Virus record (IMG/VR): IMGVR_UViG_3300037466_003065
Location: 64,001-128,000 of that record
From: a virus
Length of the DNA stretch: 64,000 bases
Reading direction: 5' to 3' (one strand)
Part shown: positions 8,704 through 19,018 of the stretch, one piece after another
Position numbering within the stretch: the stretch's first letter is position 1
How the letters are laid out: every line of letters begins with the position of its first letter
Notes under the pieces: generated by a model
The model's input: the letters and a program-made list of their open reading frames with translations, nothing else
Told to the model about the DNA's origin: nothing
The model's database searches: none
Translations under genes and position numbers: made by a program

Positions 8704-9372
8704 GTGAGACGTACAAAGGACAACAGCAAGGAGCCGCTGGTCGAACTCGACCCCGGCAAGATGGTGGGGATGTTCGGGGTGAACTGGCGACAGTTGCCCA
8801 TGGTCTACGCGAGTTGCAACCTGCAGGGGACGCACGAGCAGCGCCAGCGGACGTACGACGGCCACTTCCGCATCGCCACGGAGCTGTGCCCCTTGGGCAT
8901 CCTGCTCTCCCCGCTCCGCAGCAACGGGGCCCTGGAGATCTGCGACGGCAGGGTCGGCAGCACCAGCCCGCTGAACTCCCTCACGCGGCCCGAGATCAGG
9001 GCACGAGACCTCAAGGACGTCGCCCGTTCCCGCGTCGTGATGCTCGACCTCGAAGCCCACGAGATCGAGTACGACGTGCTCGAGCGCGAGGATCGGATCG
9101 GTGCCACTCCCAAGGAGCACCGCCTGATCCGGGCCGGCTCGCCGCCCGGTTACCAGGCCAAGGTGCTCGGCCAGGTCACGATGCCCGCTCCGTTCACGGG
9201 CAGCGTCGTCGAGTGTTACGAGGCTTACCGGCTGGGCATCCCGGTCGTCGCGTACAACGCCCCCAAGCGAACCCCTCAAAGCTACTCGCCCTGGTTCGGG
9301 GACTTCTTCACCAAGGTGCTCGACACCGAGAAGGACGCGATCGAGTACGTCCGGCGTAACTGGCTGGTGTAA
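8704..9372 (+). CDS. nucleoside 2-deoxyribosyltransferase / nucleotide N-glycosidase-like protein
   Basis: AGGAGA + GTG start; D(V)ARSRVV and TGSVVECYEAYRLGIPVVAY resemble the NDT-family D..ad.v / GT..E.g.A...gkpv motifs. Confidence 0.5.
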   Translation: MRRTKDNSKEPLVELDPGKMVGMFGVNWRQLPMVYASCNLQGTHEQRQRTYDGHFRIATELCPLGILLSPLRSNGALEICDGRVGSTSPLNSLTRPEIRARDLKDVARSRVVMLDLEAHEIEYDVLEREDRIGATPKEHRLIRAGSPPGYQAKVLGQVTMPAPFTGSVVECYEAYRLGIPVVAYNAPKRTPQSYSPWFGDFFTKVLDTEKDAIEYVRRNWLV

Positions 9373-9404
9373 AGAACCACCCTCGTTCGGTCGATCATTT
9401 CACC

Positions 9405-9983
9405 ATGCTCAACATGGTGAAATCATTGATTGACGAGGGTCTCTCTTTGGCTCAAATCGGGGAGCGTGTTGGCTGGCACTATCTGAAGGTTTATCGCTTT
9501 CTCAACGAGCACGGGCTCAAGACCAAGCATCGTCGCAAGGCTCGCACCCTCCCTTCTCGCAATCGCCCCCACCTATGTGAGTGTGGCGAGTCAGACCCGT
9601 CTCGCTTCAGCAGGAAGAACAAAACCGTCTGCATGGCATGCGTCCAGGCTGCGGTACGTGTACGGGTTAAGCAGCTTCGCCGGCAGATGATCGATTTTCT
9701 TGGGGGGCAATGCTGCCTGTGCGAGTTCAGCTTGTACCCATCCGCGCTCCATATCCACCATTTCGATCCAGCGATCAAAGATCCGCGGCTAAAAAAGGAC
9801 GGGGATGCGTGGCTTAGTTGGCGATGGGAGCGAGTTGAGGTTGAGCTGAGAAAGTGCGTCCTTTTGTGTGCCAACTGTCATGCGGGGGTTACTTGGGATG
9901 GCGCTATTGTCCCCCCGAATAAAATGCCACCTCACCTCTTGTACTCGAATTTAATCCCGGGTACATTACCTACCCATAAGTGA
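9405..9983 (+). CDS. HNH endonuclease with N-terminal HTH, probable mobile homing endonuclease
   Basis: CCLC...LHIHHFDP...CVLLCANCH; visibly more A/T-rich than flanks. Confidence 0.85.
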   Translation: MLNMVKSLIDEGLSLAQIGERVGWHYLKVYRFLNEHGLKTKHRRKARTLPSRNRPHLCECGESDPSRFSRKNKTVCMACVQAAVRVRVKQLRRQMIDFLGGQCCLCEFSLYPSALHIHHFDPAIKDPRLKKDGDAWLSWRWERVEVELRKCVLLCANCHAGVTWDGAIVPPNKMPPHLLYSNLIPGTLPTHK

Positions 9984-9993
9984 GTCTGATCCC

Positions 9994-10593
9994 ATGAATA
10001 ATCCCACCACCAAGAGCTTTGAGGACTGGCGGCGGGAGTTGGACGGGGCGTACCCACCGGGTCGCCTCGTCCACTCCTACGGGGGAGACCACCCGAACAT
10101 CCTGATCGTGGGGTACAAGGCCGTCCGCGGCGAACAGCACCCGTTCCAGACGTCCCCGGGCATCAGGGTGGTCGAGGGCCTCGTCCGCCTCGGCGTGCCC
10201 CCGGCGGCCGTCCGGATCGGCTACCTGTTCCGCGACCACGAGGCGCCGAACGACGATAAGGCGTGTACCAAGCTGTGGGTCAAGGAGCTCATGGAGGAGA
10301 TCGACATCCTCAAGCCCCGGGCCGTCCTCCTGCTCGGCAAGCGGGTGGCCGACACCATCCTCGGCGTCAACGACAACGACATCGACAAGTACCGCCGCAC
10401 CCGGTTCGCCACCAAGCCGCTGGGGGTCAACTTCATGGTGACCTACTCGCCGGAGGAGCTGGCGGCCGCCGGCGACTGGGACACCGAGACCTCCAAGACG
10501 TTCATGGAAGACCTCTTCGCCCTGGTCACCGTGAACGAGAAGCACTACCCAAACCTGATCCTGCTCGCCCCGGCCAAGGAGGGGATGAAGTAA
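9994..10593 (+). CDS. uracil-DNA glycosylase family-4-like fold protein (degenerate motifs)
   Basis: LIVG, ACTKLWVKEL.EEIDILKPRAVLLLGKRVA..ILG and VTYSP match the family-4 UDG core; canonical GE(A/G)PG and HPA motifs absent. Confidence 0.65.
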   Translation: MNNPTTKSFEDWRRELDGAYPPGRLVHSYGGDHPNILIVGYKAVRGEQHPFQTSPGIRVVEGLVRLGVPPAAVRIGYLFRDHEAPNDDKACTKLWVKELMEEIDILKPRAVLLLGKRVADTILGVNDNDIDKYRRTRFATKPLGVNFMVTYSPEELAAAGDWDTETSKTFMEDLFALVTVNEKHYPNLILLAPAKEGMK

Positions 10594-12071
10594 TGCCCAA
10601 GGCACCCGACATCCAGTTCCTCGACGACGCGGCCCACGTCGCCGCCCGCAAGTACATCGTCGAGCAGTTCCCCGGCGTCGTCGGCGTCAAGCTGAAGCAG
10701 GACGACGGCAGTCCGTGGCTGGTCAACCCGTCCAACAACACGACGTACAACGTCGCGGTCGGCATGCCCCAGCAGGATCCCCGCATCCTGACCGTAGCCT
10801 TCCTCGCCGGCGCCCTGCCGCGGTTCGGCCGGGTCGGTTCGGTCTGGTACGGCCTGCTCAACCCAGCCACCTCCCAACTCCACCTGATCACGACGGCCGA
10901 CCTGACGGCCCTGATGAACAACTGGCAGGCGACGGCCGGCGGGGTGACGGTGACCCAGAACGGCGAGTACCTGATGTTCCACCTGAACGTCGCGTACCTC
11001 CAGGACACCAACAAGATCCGCAAGACGTTCACGCTGGGCAAGGGCGACGACAGCTTCGACATGTTCCGCCGGCTCGACGGGGCCACGGACGACGGCTTCT
11101 GCCACCTGCACGCCCACTCGATGTACTCCCTGCTCGACGGGGCCACCTCGATCGAGGGCATGGCCCGGGCGGCGGCCCTGAACGGCCAGAAGGCGATGGC
11201 CCTGACCGACCACGGGGTCATGTTCGGCACGTGGAAGTTCTACAAGGCGTGCCGGGAGTGGGGCGTCAAGCCCCTGCTCGGCGTCGAGGCGTACGTCGTC
11301 GACGACCTGCACGACGGGTACCGCACCGCGGACGGCACCAAGGCCCGGTTCGAACACCACATGGGCATGGTGGCCATGAACGACGAGGGCTGGGGGAACC
11401 TCTGCCAGATGATGTCGGAGGCCAGCCGGGACTGGTTCCACTACGTCCCCCGGATCGGGCACGAGCTGATCCGGAAGTACAACAAGGGCATCATCTTCTT
11501 CACCGGCTGCTTTAAGGGTCTCGCCCCCTGGTACTGCCAGGACTTCGACCCGCCGCCCGCCGACATGCCTACCGGTCAGCACAAGTGGTGGTTCAAGAAG
11601 GATCTCGACCGGGCCTTCCGCTACCTCCAGTTCTACAAGGAGATGCTCGGCGACCGCCTGTACGGCGAGGTCATGAACATCGACTTCGAGCGGTACATGC
11701 GGTGCGTTCCGACGCTCCGCGAGATGTACGCCAAGCTCGGGATCAAGGAGTTCATGTCGAACGACTGCCACTACGAGACGGCCGAGGAGTCGATCGTCCA
11801 GGCCCTCGCGTCCCGCATCAACAACACGAAGGTCGACGAGCTGGGGGACAAGTTCACGAAGCAGGGCTGCTACTTCATCAAGTCGGTGGCCGAGATGAAG
11901 GCCGACTGGACGAGCCCGAATTTGTTCAGCACGACCATGGAGGTTGCCGAACGTTGCAACATCGACTGGTCGCCGAAGAAGGGGGAATCGAAGTATTTGT
12001 TCCCACGATTCCCAGTCGAAGACGATGTCGATTGGCAAGAGTTCTTGCAGAGCGAAGGAGCACGCCAGTGA
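10593..12071 (+). CDS. dnaE: DnaE N-terminal half: ~165-aa unknown domain fused to the PHP domain of DNA polymerase III alpha
   Basis: HLHAHSMYSLLDG, LTDHG, GVEAY, FTGC, SNDCHY PHP motifs; ends YLFPRFP..., where the DnaE palm normally begins. Confidence 0.9.
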   Translation: MPKAPDIQFLDDAAHVAARKYIVEQFPGVVGVKLKQDDGSPWLVNPSNNTTYNVAVGMPQQDPRILTVAFLAGALPRFGRVGSVWYGLLNPATSQLHLITTADLTALMNNWQATAGGVTVTQNGEYLMFHLNVAYLQDTNKIRKTFTLGKGDDSFDMFRRLDGATDDGFCHLHAHSMYSLLDGATSIEGMARAAALNGQKAMALTDHGVMFGTWKFYKACREWGVKPLLGVEAYVVDDLHDGYRTADGTKARFEHHMGMVAMNDEGWGNLCQMMSEASRDWFHYVPRIGHELIRKYNKGIIFFTGCFKGLAPWYCQDFDPPPADMPTGQHKWWFKKDLDRAFRYLQFYKEMLGDRLYGEVMNIDFERYMRCVPTLREMYAKLGIKEFMSNDCHYETAEESIVQALASRINNTKVDELGDKFTKQGCYFIKSVAEMKADWTSPNLFSTTMEVAERCNIDWSPKKGESKYLFPRFPVEDDVDWQEFLQSEGARQ

Positions 12072-12751
12072 ATCACATCGACCTCAATCGTATTGCCACG
12101 TCGTATCGTCCGATCCACCTGAACGTCCCGGATCACGCCAGCTTCCAGAACGAGCACGAGCCCCACGCCTTCAACGGCCTGGTGCAGCAGACCCTGAAGT
12201 GCGCGAACTTCAAGGACTGGAAGAACCGGATGACCCACCTCCAGATCTCCGAGCGTGATCTGAGCAACCCGCCGCCGACGCCCCGCTACCTCGAGATCGG
12301 GACGTACCGCGGGTGCAGCCTGGTGCAGGTCTTCGCGATGTGCCCGGGCATGGAGCTGCACACGCTGAACATCCTCCCCGAGCAGGCCCGGGACAAGACG
12401 ATCGAACTGCTCCCGAAGGAGGAGATCGGTCTCGCCGCACGTCAGCAGGGGATCGCGTTCACCCAGCACTACGGCGACAGCAAGGAGTTCGACTTCTCCG
12501 AGCTGGGCGAGTTCGACGTCATCTTCATCGACGGCTGTCACGAGCCAAGCTACGTCAAGTACGACGCCGTCACCGGCCGAAACCTGCTCTCGCCGGGCGG
12601 TGTCCTGATTTTCCACGACTACCACGACCGAAACGAGATCGGTCGCGGGGTCATGAAGATGCTCGACTACCTCAACTCCGGAGCCCTCTTCGACGGCCAA
12701 CTCCAGCACATCGAAGGCACCTCCCTCGTGTACTGGAGGAAGCCGCTGTGA
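12068..12751 (+). CDS. class I SAM-dependent methyltransferase (Methyltransf_24-like)
   Basis: YLEIGTYRGCS; FDVIFIDGCH...PGGVLIFHDY; GTGA overlap with the PHP gene stop. Confidence 0.88.
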   Translation: MNHIDLNRIATSYRPIHLNVPDHASFQNEHEPHAFNGLVQQTLKCANFKDWKNRMTHLQISERDLSNPPPTPRYLEIGTYRGCSLVQVFAMCPGMELHTLNILPEQARDKTIELLPKEEIGLAARQQGIAFTQHYGDSKEFDFSELGEFDVIFIDGCHEPSYVKYDAVTGRNLLSPGGVLIFHDYHDRNEIGRGVMKMLDYLNSGALFDGQLQHIEGTSLVYWRKPL

Positions 12752-12936
12752 AGCTGGTTACCCACTCCTTCAGCAAGCCGTGGATCAAGCTGTGCTGGGC
12801 CCTGTACTGGCCCGACAAGTACCGAGTCTTCCGCGTGACCTGGTGGCTCCTCGGCTTCATCCCCTTCTGGACTGGCGTCTACGCAACCCCCGACCAGACC
12901 GGCGTCGCAGACGCCCCCATCGACGAGTACACCTGA
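12748..12936 (+). CDS. small hypothetical protein (W-rich)
   Basis: GTGA-coupled 62-aa ORF. Confidence 0.5.
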   Translation: MKLVTHSFSKPWIKLCWALYWPDKYRVFRVTWWLLGFIPFWTGVYATPDQTGVADAPIDEYT

Positions 12937-13124
12937 TGCGAGACCTTCACGACGACGACTACACCCCACCGCCCGAACCCGAAAACATCATGGAACTGGA
13001 CGAGAACGAGCGGATCATCCTCGGCCGCTATCGCCAGTGCGGCAGGGTAAGCACGGAAATCGCCAAGCTCTTCAACGACCTCGCAGCGAGCTACTCCAAT
13101 GAGAATCCTGATCGCCCGACATAA
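12936..13124 (+). CDS. small hypothetical protein
   Basis: TGATG-coupled 62-aa ORF. Confidence 0.5.
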   Translation: MRDLHDDDYTPPPEPENIMELDENERIILGRYRQCGRVSTEIAKLFNDLAASYSNENPDRPT

Positions 13125-13872
13125 CGGCCTCGGTGATATGGTGATGCTGTTCCCGTTCATCGGGACGTACCTCGCCGCCGGCCACCAGGTGACGGTGGAG
13201 ACCCACCCGCGGAACCATGAGTTCCTCCGTTGGGTCTTCCCCTCGGTTCAGACTCTAGCCTGCACGTGCGACCCCTACACTGACTTCCGCCAGCGACAGC
13301 ACGGGTTCGACGTGCTCCTCAACTACAACCGGCTCGAGCTCATTGACGGGTTGTACCGGGATCTCGGCTTGCCCGCCCTCAACTGGCAGTTGCAGTGCTT
13401 AGCAATCGCACTGCAGGCCGGTCTGCCTCGGGTCGCCGACCTGTCGCCCAGCGCGTACGTCGACTACCCGGTCAAGAAGGTCAGGGGGTCGGTGATGGTC
13501 TTCACGCGGTCGACCCATCACTCCCGCACCATGGGCCCGAGCGTCGTCGATCAGCTCCGCCAGAAGTACCCCAACGCCACGATCGACCCGGAGTACGAGA
13601 CCCAGGTCGGCCTCGCCGAACACATCGCCCACGCCGACCTCGTGATCGGCATGGACAGCGGTGCGATCCATGTGGCCGAGGCGTTCAAGACGCGGTGGGT
13701 CTGCCTGCACACGACGTTCGACGAGGCGTCCCGACACCAGTTCTACAAGCACGGCGTCTGCCACCAGTCCGATCACACCTCCTCGCCCTGTTACGCCCAC
13801 GACGGGTGCGGCTTCTGCGGCGGGGCGTGTCCGAGCGAGTTCAACATCAAGGAGCTCAGTAATGGCCAATGA
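13099..13872 (+). CDS. glycosyltransferase family 9 (heptosyltransferase-like)
   Basis: RILIARHNGLGDMVM N-terminal motif and ADLVIGMDSGAIHVA C-terminal motif. Confidence 0.85.
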   Translation: MRILIARHNGLGDMVMLFPFIGTYLAAGHQVTVETHPRNHEFLRWVFPSVQTLACTCDPYTDFRQRQHGFDVLLNYNRLELIDGLYRDLGLPALNWQLQCLAIALQAGLPRVADLSPSAYVDYPVKKVRGSVMVFTRSTHHSRTMGPSVVDQLRQKYPNATIDPEYETQVGLAEHIAHADLVIGMDSGAIHVAEAFKTRWVCLHTTFDEASRHQFYKHGVCHQSDHTSSPCYAHDGCGFCGGACPSEFNIKELSNGQ

Positions 13873-14422
13873 GGCAAAGAAGGTTCTGTCCCGCGTCGAG
13901 AAGATGGTCAGCAAGGGCAAGGTCGTAGACCTCGGCTGCGGCCCCTTCAAGATCCACCCCAACGCGATCGGCGTCGACCCGGGCGGGTACGAGGGAATCG
14001 AGTCGCAGTCCTCGCTCGAGTACCTGAAGGCCCTGCCCGACAACAGCGTCGACGTGGTCTTCAGCTCGCACTACTTCGAGCACGAGCGGGAGATCGCCGA
14101 AGTCCTCGGCCACGTCACCCGCACCCTCAAGCCGGACGGCAAGCTAATCGCCTACCTGCCCAACCGCCTGGCTTACAAGGGCGCCGACGGGAACGACCCG
14201 AACGGCGACCACGTGAACCACTGGACGGCCGGCGAGTTCGCCGACCTGATCCTCGCGGTCACACCACTCGTCATCCTGTCCATCGAGAACCGCGTTGACG
14301 GCGTCCCGCCGAACCACGCGTTCACCGGCAACGGCGAGACCGAGCACCCCGACACCGGCAAGTGGGAGTACAGCTTCCTCGTCATCGCCCGCAAGCCCAA
14401 GCCCTCGGAGGTGGCGAAGTGA
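13862..14422 (+). CDS. class I SAM-dependent methyltransferase (Methyltransf_11-like)
   Basis: VVDLGCG; SVDVVFSSHYFEH; LKPDGKL. Confidence 0.88.
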   Translation: MANEAKKVLSRVEKMVSKGKVVDLGCGPFKIHPNAIGVDPGGYEGIESQSSLEYLKALPDNSVDVVFSSHYFEHEREIAEVLGHVTRTLKPDGKLIAYLPNRLAYKGADGNDPNGDHVNHWTAGEFADLILAVTPLVILSIENRVDGVPPNHAFTGNGETEHPDTGKWEYSFLVIARKPKPSEVAK

Positions 14423-14778
14423 TCTTCACCCTCCCCCTCTGGTTCCTCGCCTGCCACATGGTCGGCGACTACATCTTCCAGACCGACGACATGGCGGCCA
14501 AGAAGATGAGCTGCCCACAAGTGCGGACGAAGCACGTGATCTGGTACCTCGTCCCGTTCGCGATGACGGCGCCGCGGTTCATCTTCCTCCTGCACGGCCA
14601 CGGCCTCGACGCCTGGTACCGGTACCTCATGTTCCTGTTCACCCTCGGCCTGATGCACTGGATCACGGACATGCGGCGGTGGGCGTCCGGCGAGAAGTGG
14701 TGTGCGAAGCCCATCATGGTCGATCAGACCTTGCACGTGCTCCAGATCTCGCTCTGTACCTCCTGGTTCATCTGCTAA
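14419..14778 (+). CDS. DUF3307-like membrane protein
   Basis: HMVGDYIFQT...K, HWITD and DQTLH motifs with hydrophobic segments. Confidence 0.8.
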   Translation: MIFTLPLWFLACHMVGDYIFQTDDMAAKKMSCPQVRTKHVIWYLVPFAMTAPRFIFLLHGHGLDAWYRYLMFLFTLGLMHWITDMRRWASGEKWCAKPIMVDQTLHVLQISLCTSWFIC

Positions 14779-14815
14779 CAGGTGCCGGACGGTGGCAAGC
14801 CGCCCGGAACCCATC

Positions 14816-17299
14816 ATGACCCACGACCCCGACCAACTGAACCGATTCTTGAAGTACAAGGTCATTAAAGGGTTCCGGGAAGCCGGCCTCCCGATGACCC
14901 AGCCCTACCTCGAGCGCATCGACTTCGAGCTGGGCATCATCAAGCAGATGGGCTTCGACCAATACTTCTTGATCGTGGCCGACCTGTGTCGGTTCATGCG
15001 GTCGAAGAAGATCAAGTTCCTCGTCCGCGGCTCGGGTTGCGGAAGCTGTGTCGTCTGGGGGCTTCGGATCTCGCACAAGTGGCTCGACCCGATCCAGTAC
15101 GGCCTCCCGTTCGAACGCTTCCTCAACCCGAGCCGGGTGACGATGCCCGACTTGGACATCGACATCCAGGACGACCGGCGGCACGAGGTCGTCACGTACA
15201 CGCTGGAGAAGTACGGCCGCGACCGGGTCGCCCGCATCATTACGTTCGGCACCATGGGCGCCAAGGTGGCGATCGCCGACACCTGCCGGGCCCTGCAGAT
15301 CGAGAACTACCAGGAGGTGGCGGCCAAGATCACCGCCCTGATCCCCGCCGGCAAGGGCGAGGACGGGAAAAACATCCGCATCGCCGACGAGCTGAAGCGG
15401 AACGAGGCACTGCGTGAGCAGCAGAAGCTGTACCCGCAGGTCTTCGAGATGGCCCAGAAGATCGAGGGCAAGGTGCGGCACGCGTCGATCCACGCGGCCG
15501 GCATCATCATCGCCCCCGACGTGATCACGAAGTACGCCCCGCTGTTCTTCAAGGGCAACCCGGACAACCGCTCCGAGGAGGACAACTTCCCCACGATCCA
15601 GTGGGACATGTACGACGCGGAAGAACGCGGCATGTTGAAGATGGACTTCCTCGGGCTCAAGACGCTCCGGGTCATCGACCAGACCGAGCGGCAGATCCGG
15701 GAGGTGCAGAAGGCCCGCGGCGAGGCGCCGACCTTCGACATCGACGAGATCGACCGGTACGACGACCCGGCCTGGCGGGTACTGGCGGCCGGGCAGACGG
15801 CCGGCGTGTTCCAGATCGAGCGGGGGTTCGTCCGCAACTTCGCCCGCCGCATGTCCCTGATGCGGAAAGACCCGTGGCAGCTCGCCATCCTGATCTCCAT
15901 CATCCGCCCCGGCATGATGGACACCGGCGCCACCGAGGAGTACCTCAAGCGTGCCTCCGGGAAGTCGGCCCCCACCCCGCTCGACGCCCTACTGGAGGAG
16001 ACCCTCAGGGGCAACTTCGGCCTGTTCGTGTTCCAGGAGGACTGCATGTGGGCGGCCGTGCGGATGGCCGGCCTCAGCCTGTCGAAGGCCGACGAGCTGC
16101 GTCGCGCGATCGGCAAGAAGAAGCCCAAGGACATGGCGGCGATCAAGCCCGAGTTCATCCAGGGCTGCATCAAGAACGGGGCGACGTTGGAGCGGGCCGA
16201 GTTCGTCTGGCAGAACATGGAGACGTTCGGCCGCTACGGGTTCAACAACGCCCACGCGGCGGCCTACGGGATGGTCGGCTCGTACCAGACGGCCTACCTC
16301 AAGGCCAACTGGCCCGTCCTGTACATGACGAACTTGATCAACTCCGAAGCCGGGGTGGGCAACAAGGACGACGGCTACAACTGCAAGGTCGCCGAGTACG
16401 TCGAGGAGTCCCGCATGATGGGCCTCAAGGTGCTCAAGCCGTGCGTCCTGAAGTCGCAGGCGATGTGCCACCCGGTGTGGCCCAACCAGATCCGCTTCGG
16501 CCTGTCGCTGGTCAAGAAGGTCAGCTCGGGCGCCGTCGCCTGGGTGGGCCAGAAGTGCCGAGACGCCGTGAGCCTGAAGGACTTCATGCTCAAGTCCCTG
16601 TCGATCGAGCTGAACGAACGAAACGAGGAGAGACCCCATGTCATGGTTGGGAAGGGAGACTTGGAAGGACTGGCCCTCTCCGGCGCTCTGGACGTGTTTG
16701 AGGGTAACCGCAGCCGCATCCTCGCGATGCTTCCGACTCTACAGGAGCTTGCGAAGGGGTTTCATGAACAGTCTTGCAAGGTTCGGGCCGGCAAAGGCGC
16801 TCGCATGCGCAAGACGCCGGAGGCGGTTATGCAGACGCTGGAGGCGTACCGGATCGAGGACGACGACATTCCGAACGAGATGACCCTCGAGCGCCAGCTC
16901 GAGCGTGAGCGGGAGGTGACCGGCTGCTACCTCTCCGACTCCCCGTTCACCCCGTACAAGTCGGCGATCGACCAATGGGTCACCTGCACGGTTGGCGAGA
17001 TTCTACAGGGGCACGCCGAACAGCCGATGATCTTCGTGGCCGTCCTGACCAAGTTCCGCGAGATTGTGGTCAAGAACGGCAAGAACGCCGGCCAGACCAT
17101 GGCCATCATGCAGTGGGGCGGCGTCGACGGCGACGTCGAGACCGCTGCTTTCAGCCGCCAGTGGGCCGACATCAAGGCCAAGCCGGGCGGCGTCGAGAAG
17201 GGCAAGGTCTACTTGGTTATGGTGACGCCGGATCGTGACGGCGTGCGGGTGAACATCAAGGATATTTTGAGGTTGAGCAACTGCGGCTACGCCGACTGA
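14816..17299 (+). CDS. dnaE: DnaE C-terminal part: palm, thumb, fingers, HhH and OB domains of DNA polymerase III alpha
   Basis: GFDQYFLIV, RGSGCGS, FERFLNP, PDLDID (catalytic), HAAG, KMDFLGL, YGFNNAHAAAY and C-terminal OB fold; lacks PHP. Confidence 0.95.
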   Translation: MTHDPDQLNRFLKYKVIKGFREAGLPMTQPYLERIDFELGIIKQMGFDQYFLIVADLCRFMRSKKIKFLVRGSGCGSCVVWGLRISHKWLDPIQYGLPFERFLNPSRVTMPDLDIDIQDDRRHEVVTYTLEKYGRDRVARIITFGTMGAKVAIADTCRALQIENYQEVAAKITALIPAGKGEDGKNIRIADELKRNEALREQQKLYPQVFEMAQKIEGKVRHASIHAAGIIIAPDVITKYAPLFFKGNPDNRSEEDNFPTIQWDMYDAEERGMLKMDFLGLKTLRVIDQTERQIREVQKARGEAPTFDIDEIDRYDDPAWRVLAAGQTAGVFQIERGFVRNFARRMSLMRKDPWQLAILISIIRPGMMDTGATEEYLKRASGKSAPTPLDALLEETLRGNFGLFVFQEDCMWAAVRMAGLSLSKADELRRAIGKKKPKDMAAIKPEFIQGCIKNGATLERAEFVWQNMETFGRYGFNNAHAAAYGMVGSYQTAYLKANWPVLYMTNLINSEAGVGNKDDGYNCKVAEYVEESRMMGLKVLKPCVLKSQAMCHPVWPNQIRFGLSLVKKVSSGAVAWVGQKCRDAVSLKDFMLKSLSIELNERNEERPHVMVGKGDLEGLALSGALDVFEGNRSRILAMLPTLQELAKGFHEQSCKVRAGKGARMRKTPEAVMQTLEAYRIEDDDIPNEMTLERQLEREREVTGCYLSDSPFTPYKSAIDQWVTCTVGEILQGHAEQPMIFVAVLTKFREIVVKNGKNAGQTMAIMQWGGVDGDVETAAFSRQWADIKAKPGGVEKGKVYLVMVTPDRDGVRVNIKDILRLSNCGYAD

Positions 17300-17308
17300 G
17301 GACAAACA

Positions 17309-17839
17309 ATGAGATACGAGTTCCAGTGCAACGATTGTCAAGGCCCCCGCCCCGAGGGCGCCCCGAAGACCGGGGCCATCAACGTGGCCCACGAGCGGGA
17401 CTTCCCGATCGGCAAGGCCCCCAAGCTGGGCGCCAAGGTGAAGTGCCCGAACTGCAGGAAGAAGTCGGCCGCCCGCATTGTCTCCGAGGGCATCCAGGGC
17501 ATCGTCCGCGGCAAGGCCGTGGTCGACTGGCGGCACGGCCAATCCGTGATCGAGCGTCTGCCGGACGGGCAGGAGGTCAAGATGACCTTCGTCGATCACC
17601 CGCACACCTCGACGGAGTACCAGCGTAACCTCGCCCACCTCGCCAAGAAGGAGGAGATCACGGCGCCGAACGTGTCGGCCCTCTCCAAGGCGTACTACTC
17701 CGAGAAGCACGACCGCCTGGTCGTCGACGTCCACTCCAACGTCAAGGATCCGCTGGGCACGATCGAGCGGAACAAGAAGAACATCAGCGTGACCAAGCGG
17801 CACGTCGGCCAGAAGGTCAAGATCCGGGGGCAGAAGTAA
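17309..17839 (+). CDS. FmdB-like zinc-ribbon protein
   Basis: MRYEFQCNDC...CPNC. Confidence 0.65.
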   Translation: MRYEFQCNDCQGPRPEGAPKTGAINVAHERDFPIGKAPKLGAKVKCPNCRKKSAARIVSEGIQGIVRGKAVVDWRHGQSVIERLPDGQEVKMTFVDHPHTSTEYQRNLAHLAKKEEITAPNVSALSKAYYSEKHDRLVVDVHSNVKDPLGTIERNKKNISVTKRHVGQKVKIRGQK

Positions 17840-18333
17840 TGGGAGTCCCACCGTCCCCCCCGGCCGCCCCGAAGCCGAAGGTCGTCGTACCGGGCATCGG
17901 CTCTCCGCTCCCGCAGCCCCCACAGGGCGGCGAGCGGGTCATGCAGCAGCGGAGGATCCCGGTCACCACGGGCATCGGCATGCCGGTGCCCGAGGAGCAC
18001 AGGCCGGAGAACGCCGCCAGCCACCTGCTCAACTCGGTCTACCAGGACGAGGTGGGGCGGATGCTGCTGGCCCCCGAGGTGATGGCCCAGCTCCCGCAGT
18101 GGGCCGCCTACATCATCAACCAGAACCGCACGCTCACGATCGAGCTGCAGGTGCTGACCAGCCTCCTGATGAAGCGGGGCCTGATCACCCAGGTCGAGCT
18201 CACCCAGTTCCACCAGCAGGTCATGAAGGCCCACGACGAGCACTTCGCCAAGATGGTCGCCCAGCTTGGGCGGCAGTTCGGCCCCAAGCCGCCGCCCGCC
18301 CAGGAACCCGCCCCCGACCCCCGGAGACTCTGA
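17839..18333 (+). CDS. hypothetical protein
   Basis: TAATG-coupled 164-aa ORF. Confidence 0.7.
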   Translation: MGVPPSPPAAPKPKVVVPGIGSPLPQPPQGGERVMQQRRIPVTTGIGMPVPEEHRPENAASHLLNSVYQDEVGRMLLAPEVMAQLPQWAAYIINQNRTLTIELQVLTSLLMKRGLITQVELTQFHQQVMKAHDEHFAKMVAQLGRQFGPKPPPAQEPAPDPRRL

Positions 18334-18334
18334 G

Positions 18335-19018
18335 ATGATCCCCGAGCATTGCCCGGTCTGCGACGCCCCCATCGAGCAGCACAAGTGGGACTGGGACGCC
18401 CAGCAGACGTTCGAGGGGACGTGGCTCACCAAGTTCCGCAACGGGACGACGAGCTGCGCCCGGTGCGGCCGGAAGCTGCGGGCCGTCGAGCCCGACGACG
18501 CCACGCCGCCGGTCATCGAGGCCGACCAAGTCATGGTCGCCGGTCGCGACTACGACATGCTCTTCCAGAGCTACCGGGCCAAGCGGTTCGGCCTGCTGCC
18601 GATGCACGTCTTCTGGTGGTGGAGTCCGCTGAAGCACGACATCGCGTTCAACACCCTGATCGCCAACCAGATCAACGCCTTCGCGCACACCCGCAACCGG
18701 TCGACGGTCATGGGGGTGATCGTCGTCCAGCCGGGCGTCGAGGTGCCGGGCACGTTGATGGAGGGAAAGATCGACGGGATCTACAGGATCAGGTCGCACA
18801 TGCTCAGTGACGCCCGCGGCCCCTACCCCAGCCTCAAGGCCGAGGACGGGATCCGCGCAACGTTCACGAACCACCTGCAGCACATCTACCACTACTGGCC
18901 GTCGTTCACGCTCCCGCCGAATGACTTCAGAAACCTCGGCGACACGGTCGATCTAGTTCGCCTGTGGACGCGGTACTCCCGCTACAACATCCCCGTGACC
19001 GTCAGAAGGACAGCATGA
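18335..19018 (+). CDS. hypothetical protein with N-terminal zinc ribbon
   Basis: CPVC...CARC; strong codon bias. Confidence 0.7.
   Translation: MIPEHCPVCDAPIEQHKWDWDAQQTFEGTWLTKFRNGTTSCARCGRKLRAVEPDDATPPVIEADQVMVAGRDYDMLFQSYRAKRFGLLPMHVFWWWSPLKHDIAFNTLIANQINAFAHTRNRSTVMGVIVVQPGVEVPGTLMEGKIDGIYRIRSHMLSDARGPYPSLKAEDGIRATFTNHLQHIYHYWPSFTLPPNDFRNLGDTVDLVRLWTRYSRYNIPVTVRRTA

Follow-up and report, generated by a model that had tools for sequence, protein, structure and literature searches.

Background

To our knowledge, the only textbook split of DnaE is the intein-spliced one of cyanobacteria. There, a C-family replicative polymerase is encoded by two distant genes, dnaE-n and dnaE-c, whose products a split intein joins into a single chain (Caspi et al. 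2003, as cited in PMC3919608). ‘Fractured genes’ likewise depend on split inteins, often with a homing endonuclease gene between the halves (PMC2677866), and accounts of C-family polymerases present them as single chains, PHP being “universally present” in alpha (PMC12926913). Here we describe a phage locus in which the PHP domain and the polymerase core of DnaE are encoded by two separate genes, located within a 64,000-nucleotide stretch (hereafter, the window) of the IMG/VR virus record IMGVR_UViG_3300037466_003065, of which it comprises bases 64001-128000. Like its cyanobacterial counterpart, this C-family replicative polymerase comes from two distant genes, but the cut lies between PHP and palm rather than at the cyanobacterial position, and there is no intein, so that the product must stay as two chains.

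In the group 2.2 jumbo phages, a minimal Pol III alpha is also split into two stand-alone, intein-less proteins from separate genes, which have been proposed to come together as one enzyme (Iyer et al. 2021, PMC7824862). Its cut, however, falls inside the catalytic nucleotidyltransferase module, and it lacks PHP and accessory domains and occurs beside a family B polymerase (PMC7824862), whereas in the window phage the core is intact in one protein, PHP makes up the other, and neither a family A nor a family B polymerase is found. In the E. coli Pol III core, alpha is accompanied by a separately encoded epsilon proofreader (PMC12926913); as here, polymerase and presumed 3′-5′ proofreader are separate and would require non-covalent docking, but epsilon is a DnaQ/DEDDh exonuclease placed on an inactive PHP domain that is still fused to alpha, while in the window phage the detached subunit is PHP itself, with its ligands intact, and no DnaQ homologue is present. 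Intein-less, two-gene phage DnaE is also represented by the cultured Rossellomorea phage phiT1 (gp20/gp18) and by the PHROG fragment families 7513, 12219, 13169 and 11165. These fissions, which indicate that DnaE tolerates being cut, lie within the core, following approximately residue 108-122 or residue 284-296 (the latter being the phiT1 site), as opposed to the cut in the window, which separates whole domains. Our literature searches found no description of a DnaE split between PHP and core.

Results

Two genes matching adjoining parts of DnaE

The source record is an uncultured metagenomic assembly of 184,787 bp with a GC content of ~64%, rated 100% complete by CheckV. An earlier note, made from the letters of the window, had placed PHP and core in separate genes ~2.7 kb apart, in different frames and with six open reading frames (ORFs) between them, and the coordinates and ends of the two genes agree with this description:

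10593..12071, + strand: PHP subunit gene, 492 aa, ATG start with AAGGAGG upstream
14816..17299, + strand: DnaE core subunit gene, 827 aa, ATG start; palm, thumb, fingers and helix-hairpin-helix (HhH)/beta-binding region

The two starts differ modulo 3, i.e. the genes are in different reading frames. Since the domains that make up a single DnaE polypeptide are distributed here over two ORFs 2.7 kb apart, we file the locus as a split variant rather than as canonical DnaE. The first protein matches Pfam PHP at residues 171-361 (E 3.9e-34), and the second matches DNA_pol3_alpha (E 7.6e-73), DNA_pol3_finger (E 1.6e-34) and HHH_6 (E 1.7e-8). When aligned to full-length DnaE, the halves meet end to end: they occupy positions 40-333 and 334-1073 of the phrog_405 model, positions 1-297 and 294-1020 of TIGR00594, and residues 7-323 and 319-1043 of M. 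tuberculosis DnaE1 (chain 7pu7), while on Taq Pol III the PHP half aligns to 7-304 and the core alignment extends to residue 1092. Because the halves adjoin on every full-length model tried, the cut can be placed at the PHP-palm boundary, with nothing lost or duplicated. Residues ~166-487 of the PHP protein correspond to the PHP domain of DnaE as far as the LFPxF/Y...DxDW segment, and conserved boundary segments are retained on both sides of the cut (LFPxY..DxDW and FLxFK).

The motif HHDHEH[C/H]DH defines an “active” PHP domain (PMC12926913). All nine metal ligands reported in the earlier note could be located in the PHP protein (H173, H175, D182, H207, E232, H256, C306, D391 and H393); they align to those of Taq Pol III and are invariant across the clade described below. 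In the core, the three polymerase aspartates (D112, D114 and D277) correspond to the Taq PDIDTD and KMDFLG motifs and are invariant in 38-39 clade proteins. Both subunits thus look catalytically intact, and the PHP subunit would be expected to act as an exonuclease. The AlphaFold2 model of the PHP protein has a predicted local distance difference test (pLDDT) score of 79.7, and its PHP part matches the Pol III alpha subunits of Taq, M. tuberculosis and E. coli with Z of 26-29.5, versus <=16 for other PHP enzymes; RNase AM and PolX are among the fold matches of the protein. The closest structural match is to M. tuberculosis DnaE1 (5lew/7pu7) and Taq Pol III alpha (2hpi), which share the nine-residue motif and to which the core aligns from the palm to the beta-binding domains; these, however, are single chains without the 165-residue N-terminal domain of the window PHP protein. 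The OB fold (Pfam tRNA_anti-codon), which the bacterial DnaE matches carry, was not detected in the core of the window phage or of its clade.

The whole genome holds exactly one PHP and one DnaE core, and has no match to DNA_pol_A, DNA_pol_B or RNase_T/DnaQ. Judging from this gene content, the split DnaE is the only recognisable polymerase, and its PHP subunit the only recognisable putative proofreader.

The split in relatives

A word-indexed search returned eight relatives of the PHP protein (37-47% identity). Six of them are complete, stand-alone proteins of 466-487 aa that cover 98-100% of the query, including its N-terminal domain, and end at the same place; the remaining two are a fragment and an intein-bearing protein (P0008). 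In an exhaustive HMMER search over 1.84 billion representatives, about 25 stand-alone PHP cluster representatives ranked first (E 1e-116 to 1e-70, 36-43% identity), the top proteins being mostly 445-583 aa in length with the match ending at or near the C-terminus, and were followed by proteins in which other N-terminal extensions precede a C-terminal PHP. Fused DnaE of 1100-1200 aa entered this list only at about 150 bits or less, and in a search for longer homologues the best fused form scored 160 bits versus 314-385 for the stand-alone relatives. On the core side, 38 homologues (41-58% identity) lack PHP, the complete ones beginning within about 10 residues of the start of the window core. 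Five PHP/core pairs came from contigs of the same recorded size (21,760, 185,521, 56,699, 179,832 and 163,867 bp), and a search for related loci with the PHP protein alone found none. The loci of relatives, found in IMG/VR and JGI metagenomes by the clade-specific pattern YFLI[VI]xD[LI]CxFM, are arranged as follows:

G001 (193.7 kb, 64% GC): PHP-core gap of 9.3 kb with about 11 ORFs
G002 and G004 (60% GC): gap of 1.2 kb with a sigma-70-like factor and an ORF of unknown function
G005 (177.8 kb, terminal repeats, 29.5% GC): gap of 3.6 kb with an ORF of unknown function, a DnaQ-type exonuclease and an intein-bearing superfamily 2 (SF2) helicase
L009 (62% GC): gap of 0.6 kb with one ORF of unknown function
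L111 (metagenome contig, 54% GC): no gap; 8-nt overlap between PHP stop and core ATG (ATGGCTGA), the two genes being in different frames

In L111, the overlapping ORFs are predicted to be translationally coupled. In the window phage, G001, G002 and G005, the gene after the core encodes a Zn-ribbon protein. As the split is kept whatever the gap contains, it precedes the cassette of genes found in the gap of the window and is independent of it: the gap behaves as a place of cargo accumulation, and the window methyltransferase/glycosyltransferase cassette is secondary. For the same reason we reject the proposal of the earlier note that separate PHP would let proofreading be tuned to copy modified DNA: that cassette is not conserved at the gap, which in relatives holds a sigma factor, a DnaQ-type exonuclease together with a helicase, or nothing.

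The larger gap of G001 (G001:C1:19500-35500, L100) includes some ORFs that resemble sugar-nucleotide enzymes and transferases by their N-terminal motifs only, with N-termini similar to those of an epimerase/dehydratase and a GDP-mannose dehydratase. A weak methyltransferase similarity to the window cassette, the sole similarity compared, was found, and this gap may be a larger counterpart of that cassette. The SF2 helicase in the gap of G005 (L102, G005:C1:64500-74500) carries a Hint (Hom_end_hint) segment.

Phylogeny and co-inheritance

In a core-domain tree of 57 rows (IQ-TREE, LG+C20 PMSF, SH-aLRT), the window clade comprises 13 rows with 100% support, and its sister group (L002, L009 and P0120) is supported at 99%. 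Together they form an all-split group of 16 verified or presumed split rows (97% SH-aLRT), and the same group was recovered at 98% by FastTree with 97 rows. Other splits at the PHP-core junction (L015, L017 and L027) are placed beside fused forms in the tree, indicating that this boundary was cut repeatedly, with four changes required by parsimony and at least two forced by the starred branches. Fused DnaE accounted for 67 of the 82 scored loci, 80 of which came from IMG/VR, and in further scored loci the cut follows approximately core residue 103-122 or residue 284-296. An alignment-based scan of IMG/VR yielded mostly distant fused DnaE among the matches listed. The search for the same split in relatives, which the earlier note had proposed, thus leads to a deep, conserved clade, the opposite of a recent inactivating insertion. 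Pairwise identities of PHP and core correlate across 11 genomes (r 0.88; in a Mantel test, 2 of 5000 permutations were as high), indicating that the two halves were co-inherited.

Several candidates did not qualify as junction splits. L023 was rejected because its cut lies after about core residue 103. MT835632, the sole INPHARED record covering >80% of the PHP query, is an ordinary fused DnaE among bacterial-type genes, and the 302 Pseudomonas phage matches to the core are not split, but represent Pbunavirus polymerases, which are about 1036 aa long and diverge in their N-terminal region. Two IMG/VR loci left out of the tree, L013 and L042, have in-frame stops within the PHP match of otherwise good DnaE genes, which may represent stop-codon recoding or sequencing errors.

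Searched routes to rejoining

We found no intein or Hint family in the PHP protein, in the core protein (Pfam) or anywhere in the genome, in agreement with the absence of an intein asserted in the earlier note. Only 5-14 residues per end fall outside the DnaE models, leaving no room for a split intein. An Rfam search of 9000-19000 with E up to 1 gave no intron and only two chance-level matches. No meaningful repeat flanks the 2.7-kb cassette, no recombinase is present among its genes (Pfam), and no homing-endonuclease family was detected in the six gap genes (Pfam, PHROGs), of which the two 62-aa ORFs match nothing. The hallmarks of a split intein or fractured gene, namely an N-intein closing the first half, a C-intein ending in HN ahead of a Cys/Ser/Thr in the second half and often a homing endonuclease gene in between, are therefore not seen at the cut.

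Inteins do occur at other positions in relatives. The PHP protein of P0008 (JGI contig of 8.1 kb) contains a ~300-aa intein with an HNH motif (Pfam Intein_splicing) inside the PHP domain, placed right after the HSMY metal-ligand motif (C...HN/S, the slash marking the junction), indicating that inteins invade the PHP gene of the clade, but not at the split site. The first ~34 residues of the sister-group core P0120 (contig of 177,964 bp) resemble the C-fragment of a split intein (...VYDLKVKDVHSYSVDDIVVHN, followed by S), and its DnaE sequence resumes at the conserved SAAGS motif, at about core residue 68, which suggests that this core may have an additional split-intein break.

The N-terminal domain of the PHP protein

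Residues 1-165 of the PHP protein (10593-11087 of the window) form a clade-specific alpha/beta domain, which is covered by roughly 16 clusters of the exhaustive search. It is confidently folded in the whole-protein model (pLDDT about 80-90); modelled by itself from three sequences, the domain came out poorly (pLDDT 57). No Pfam or usable ESM Atlas match was found for these residues. Fold matches were of the PD-(D/E)xK type, to I-Ssp6803I (Z 8.4, root-mean-square deviation 3.2, 115 aligned), NhoI (Z 8.4) and the N-terminal domain of Eco15I (Z 7.6), with Z values that, according to the tool, fall in the range common for unrelated models. As the domain has no invariant D, E or K across the clade alignment, it is possibly inactive, and may represent a nuclease-like docking or DNA-binding domain. 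Other stand-alone PHP proteins have different N-terminal parts: a cpYpsA SLOG N-terminus in G005, and about 470 aa in L009.

The cassette and its surroundings

The 2.7-kb gap of the window is filled with six tightly packed + strand ORFs, four of which have domain matches, and the core gene is directly followed by the Zn-ribbon gene:

12068..12751, + strand: class I S-adenosylmethionine (SAM) methyltransferase, 227 aa; Pfam Methyltransf_24 E 1e-13; GC content at third codon positions (GC3) 0.90
12748..12936, + strand: ORF of 62 aa without family match; GC3 0.91
12936..13124, + strand: ORF of 62 aa without family match; GC3 0.75
13099..13872, + strand: glycosyltransferase family 9 (GT9)-like glycosyltransferase, 257 aa; Pfam Glyco_transf_9 E 1.4e-6, over a short stretch only
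13862..14422, + strand: class I SAM methyltransferase, 186 aa; Pfam Methyltransf_11 E 9.8e-9
14419..14778, + strand: DUF3307 membrane protein, 119 aa; Pfam DUF3307 E 1.9e-9; phrog_2470
17309..17839, + strand: Zn-ribbon (FmdB-like) protein, weak TIGR02605 match; directly 3′ of the core gene

Stop/start overlaps (GTGA, TGATG) occur almost throughout the interval from 9994 to 18333: the ATG of the PHP gene overlaps the stop of a weakly matched gene similar to uracil-DNA glycosylase (UDG), and the GTG start of the methyltransferase at 12068 overlaps the PHP stop (GTGA). A scan of 9000-18500 found neither terminator-like sites (5.9 +/- 2.4 expected from dinucleotide shuffles) nor a sigma-70-type promoter-like site on the + strand. 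GC3 is 0.94 in the PHP gene and 0.92 in the core gene, and the PHP gene, the five larger cassette genes and the core gene are all at 0.88-0.95. Since the cassette matches the flanking genes in GC3, it has apparently been resident for a long time, and would probably be co-transcribed with both halves; the 9000-18500 region looks like a single long, tightly coupled replication operon.

Two genes upstream of PHP, the ORF at 9405-9983 resembles HNH-type endonucleases (CANCH motif, by eye) and has a GC3 of 0.62, versus 0.88-0.95 in all its neighbours; going by these features, it is probably a recently acquired mobile endonuclease.

Discussion

We consider it likely that the window phage has a two-subunit replicase, in which a separately encoded PHP proofreader would be docked non-covalently to the polymerase core. 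We interpret the locus as a two-subunit DnaE, and not as a broken gene, because the cut is conserved, both halves keep their catalytic residues and have been inherited together, and there is no other polymerase in the genome. The split itself is ancient and conserved across a deep phage clade, and does not represent damage. The earlier note had arrived at a two-subunit enzyme from the single locus, and the comparative evidence supports it well, with the assembly itself still to be understood as predicted.

Under this interpretation, the replicative C-family polymerase would be made as two polypeptides from one dense + strand operon. One would contribute the metal-dependent 3′-5′ exonuclease-type PHP domain with its nine ligands, plus the 165-residue N-terminal domain, and the other the palm, thumb, fingers and HhH/beta-binding region with the three catalytic aspartates; they would dock through the PHP-core interface that is intramolecular in ordinary DnaE. 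Fission would have occurred once in the ancestor of this broad phage clade, with the genes overlapping by 8 nt as its simplest surviving form, and the gap would later have taken up unrelated cargo in each lineage, the 2.7-kb methyltransferase/GT9/DUF3307 cassette of the window being one example. It should be kept in mind that certain observations speak against such a replicase. The genome has no beta-clamp match, and no clear QxxLF-type clamp-binding motif could be seen by eye in the core alignment; the core start lacks a clear Shine-Dalgarno sequence; the record is a metagenomic assembly of an uncultured phage, and expression of its genes is thus a prediction; and co-divergence of the halves reflects co-inheritance, not contact.

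The most serious competing explanation, which we nevertheless regard as unlikely, is that PHP and core are functionally independent, with the core polymerising alone and PHP being a free nuclease or phosphoesterase used elsewhere, for instance in repair, end processing or nucleotide metabolism. RNase AM and PolX show that PHP enzymes can have other roles, the stand-alone PHP proteins of this and the sister group have varied N-terminal domains, and the two genes can be as far as 9.3 kb apart. However, the position of the cut coincides precisely with the domain boundary of DnaE, with boundary segments kept on both sides, and the PHP part is nearest to the PHP domains of Pol III alpha (Z 26-29.5, as opposed to <=16). 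Moreover, the gene order from PHP through core to Zn-ribbon is conserved, the two genes are apparently translationally coupled in L111, and the genome lacks any other recognisable proofreader.

It is very unlikely that the halves are rejoined, whether through a split intein, intron trans-splicing, bypass by the ribosome or removal of the 2.7-kb cassette from the DNA. The cyanobacterial DnaE, which is rejoined by a split intein (as cited in PMC3919608), provides a precedent, and P0008 and P0120 have inteins at other sites, but neither the proteins nor the genome of the window phage contain an intein domain, the ends have no residues to spare, and no intron family, flanking repeat or cassette recombinase is present. 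The gap, furthermore, is filled by six coding genes with native codon usage, and L111, which has no intervening DNA, still consists of two overlapping ORFs in different frames. A recent inactivating insertion and an assembly error, which would make the locus a dnaE pseudogene or a chimeric contig, respectively, are each very unlikely as well, and taken together receive the lowest credence of all. They could be invoked because the record is a metagenomic assembly and the gap is precisely where the accessory-gene cassette lies; the same cut, however, recurs in dozens of assemblies that are independent and come from different sources (36-58% identity), among them a phage with 29.5% GC. The active-site residues do not vary, both halves are bounded by a start and a stop of their own, GC3 stays within 0.88-0.95 from PHP to core apart from the one 62-aa ORF at 0.75, and the genome offers no alternative polymerase.

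As an extension of the two-subunit replicase, one may tentatively imagine, with considerable doubt, that an arrangement similar to alpha-epsilon evolved independently, in which the ancestral PHP proofreader would have become a free, exchangeable subunit, its lineage-specific N-terminal domains (PD-(D/E)xK-like in the window phage, cpYpsA SLOG elsewhere) would bring it to further partners or substrates besides the core, and the gap would be favoured for insertion of host-specific cargo, including the methyltransferase/glycosyltransferase cassette.

Conclusions

Fission at a domain boundary is a mild novelty, and intein-less dnaE splits are fairly common in phages, many of them being represented in PHROGs; what our literature searches did not turn up is this particular cut between PHP and core. 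For annotation, such halves are easily called “partial”, “pseudogene” or “PHP domain-containing protein”, which leads to wrong counts of phage polymerases. An apparently active PHP domain on a separate polypeptide, in a genome with no other recognisable polymerase or proofreader, constitutes a natural experiment on what PHP contributes in trans, and may help to address whether it serves fidelity or supports the palm structurally, and to what extent the parts of a replicase have to be covalently linked.

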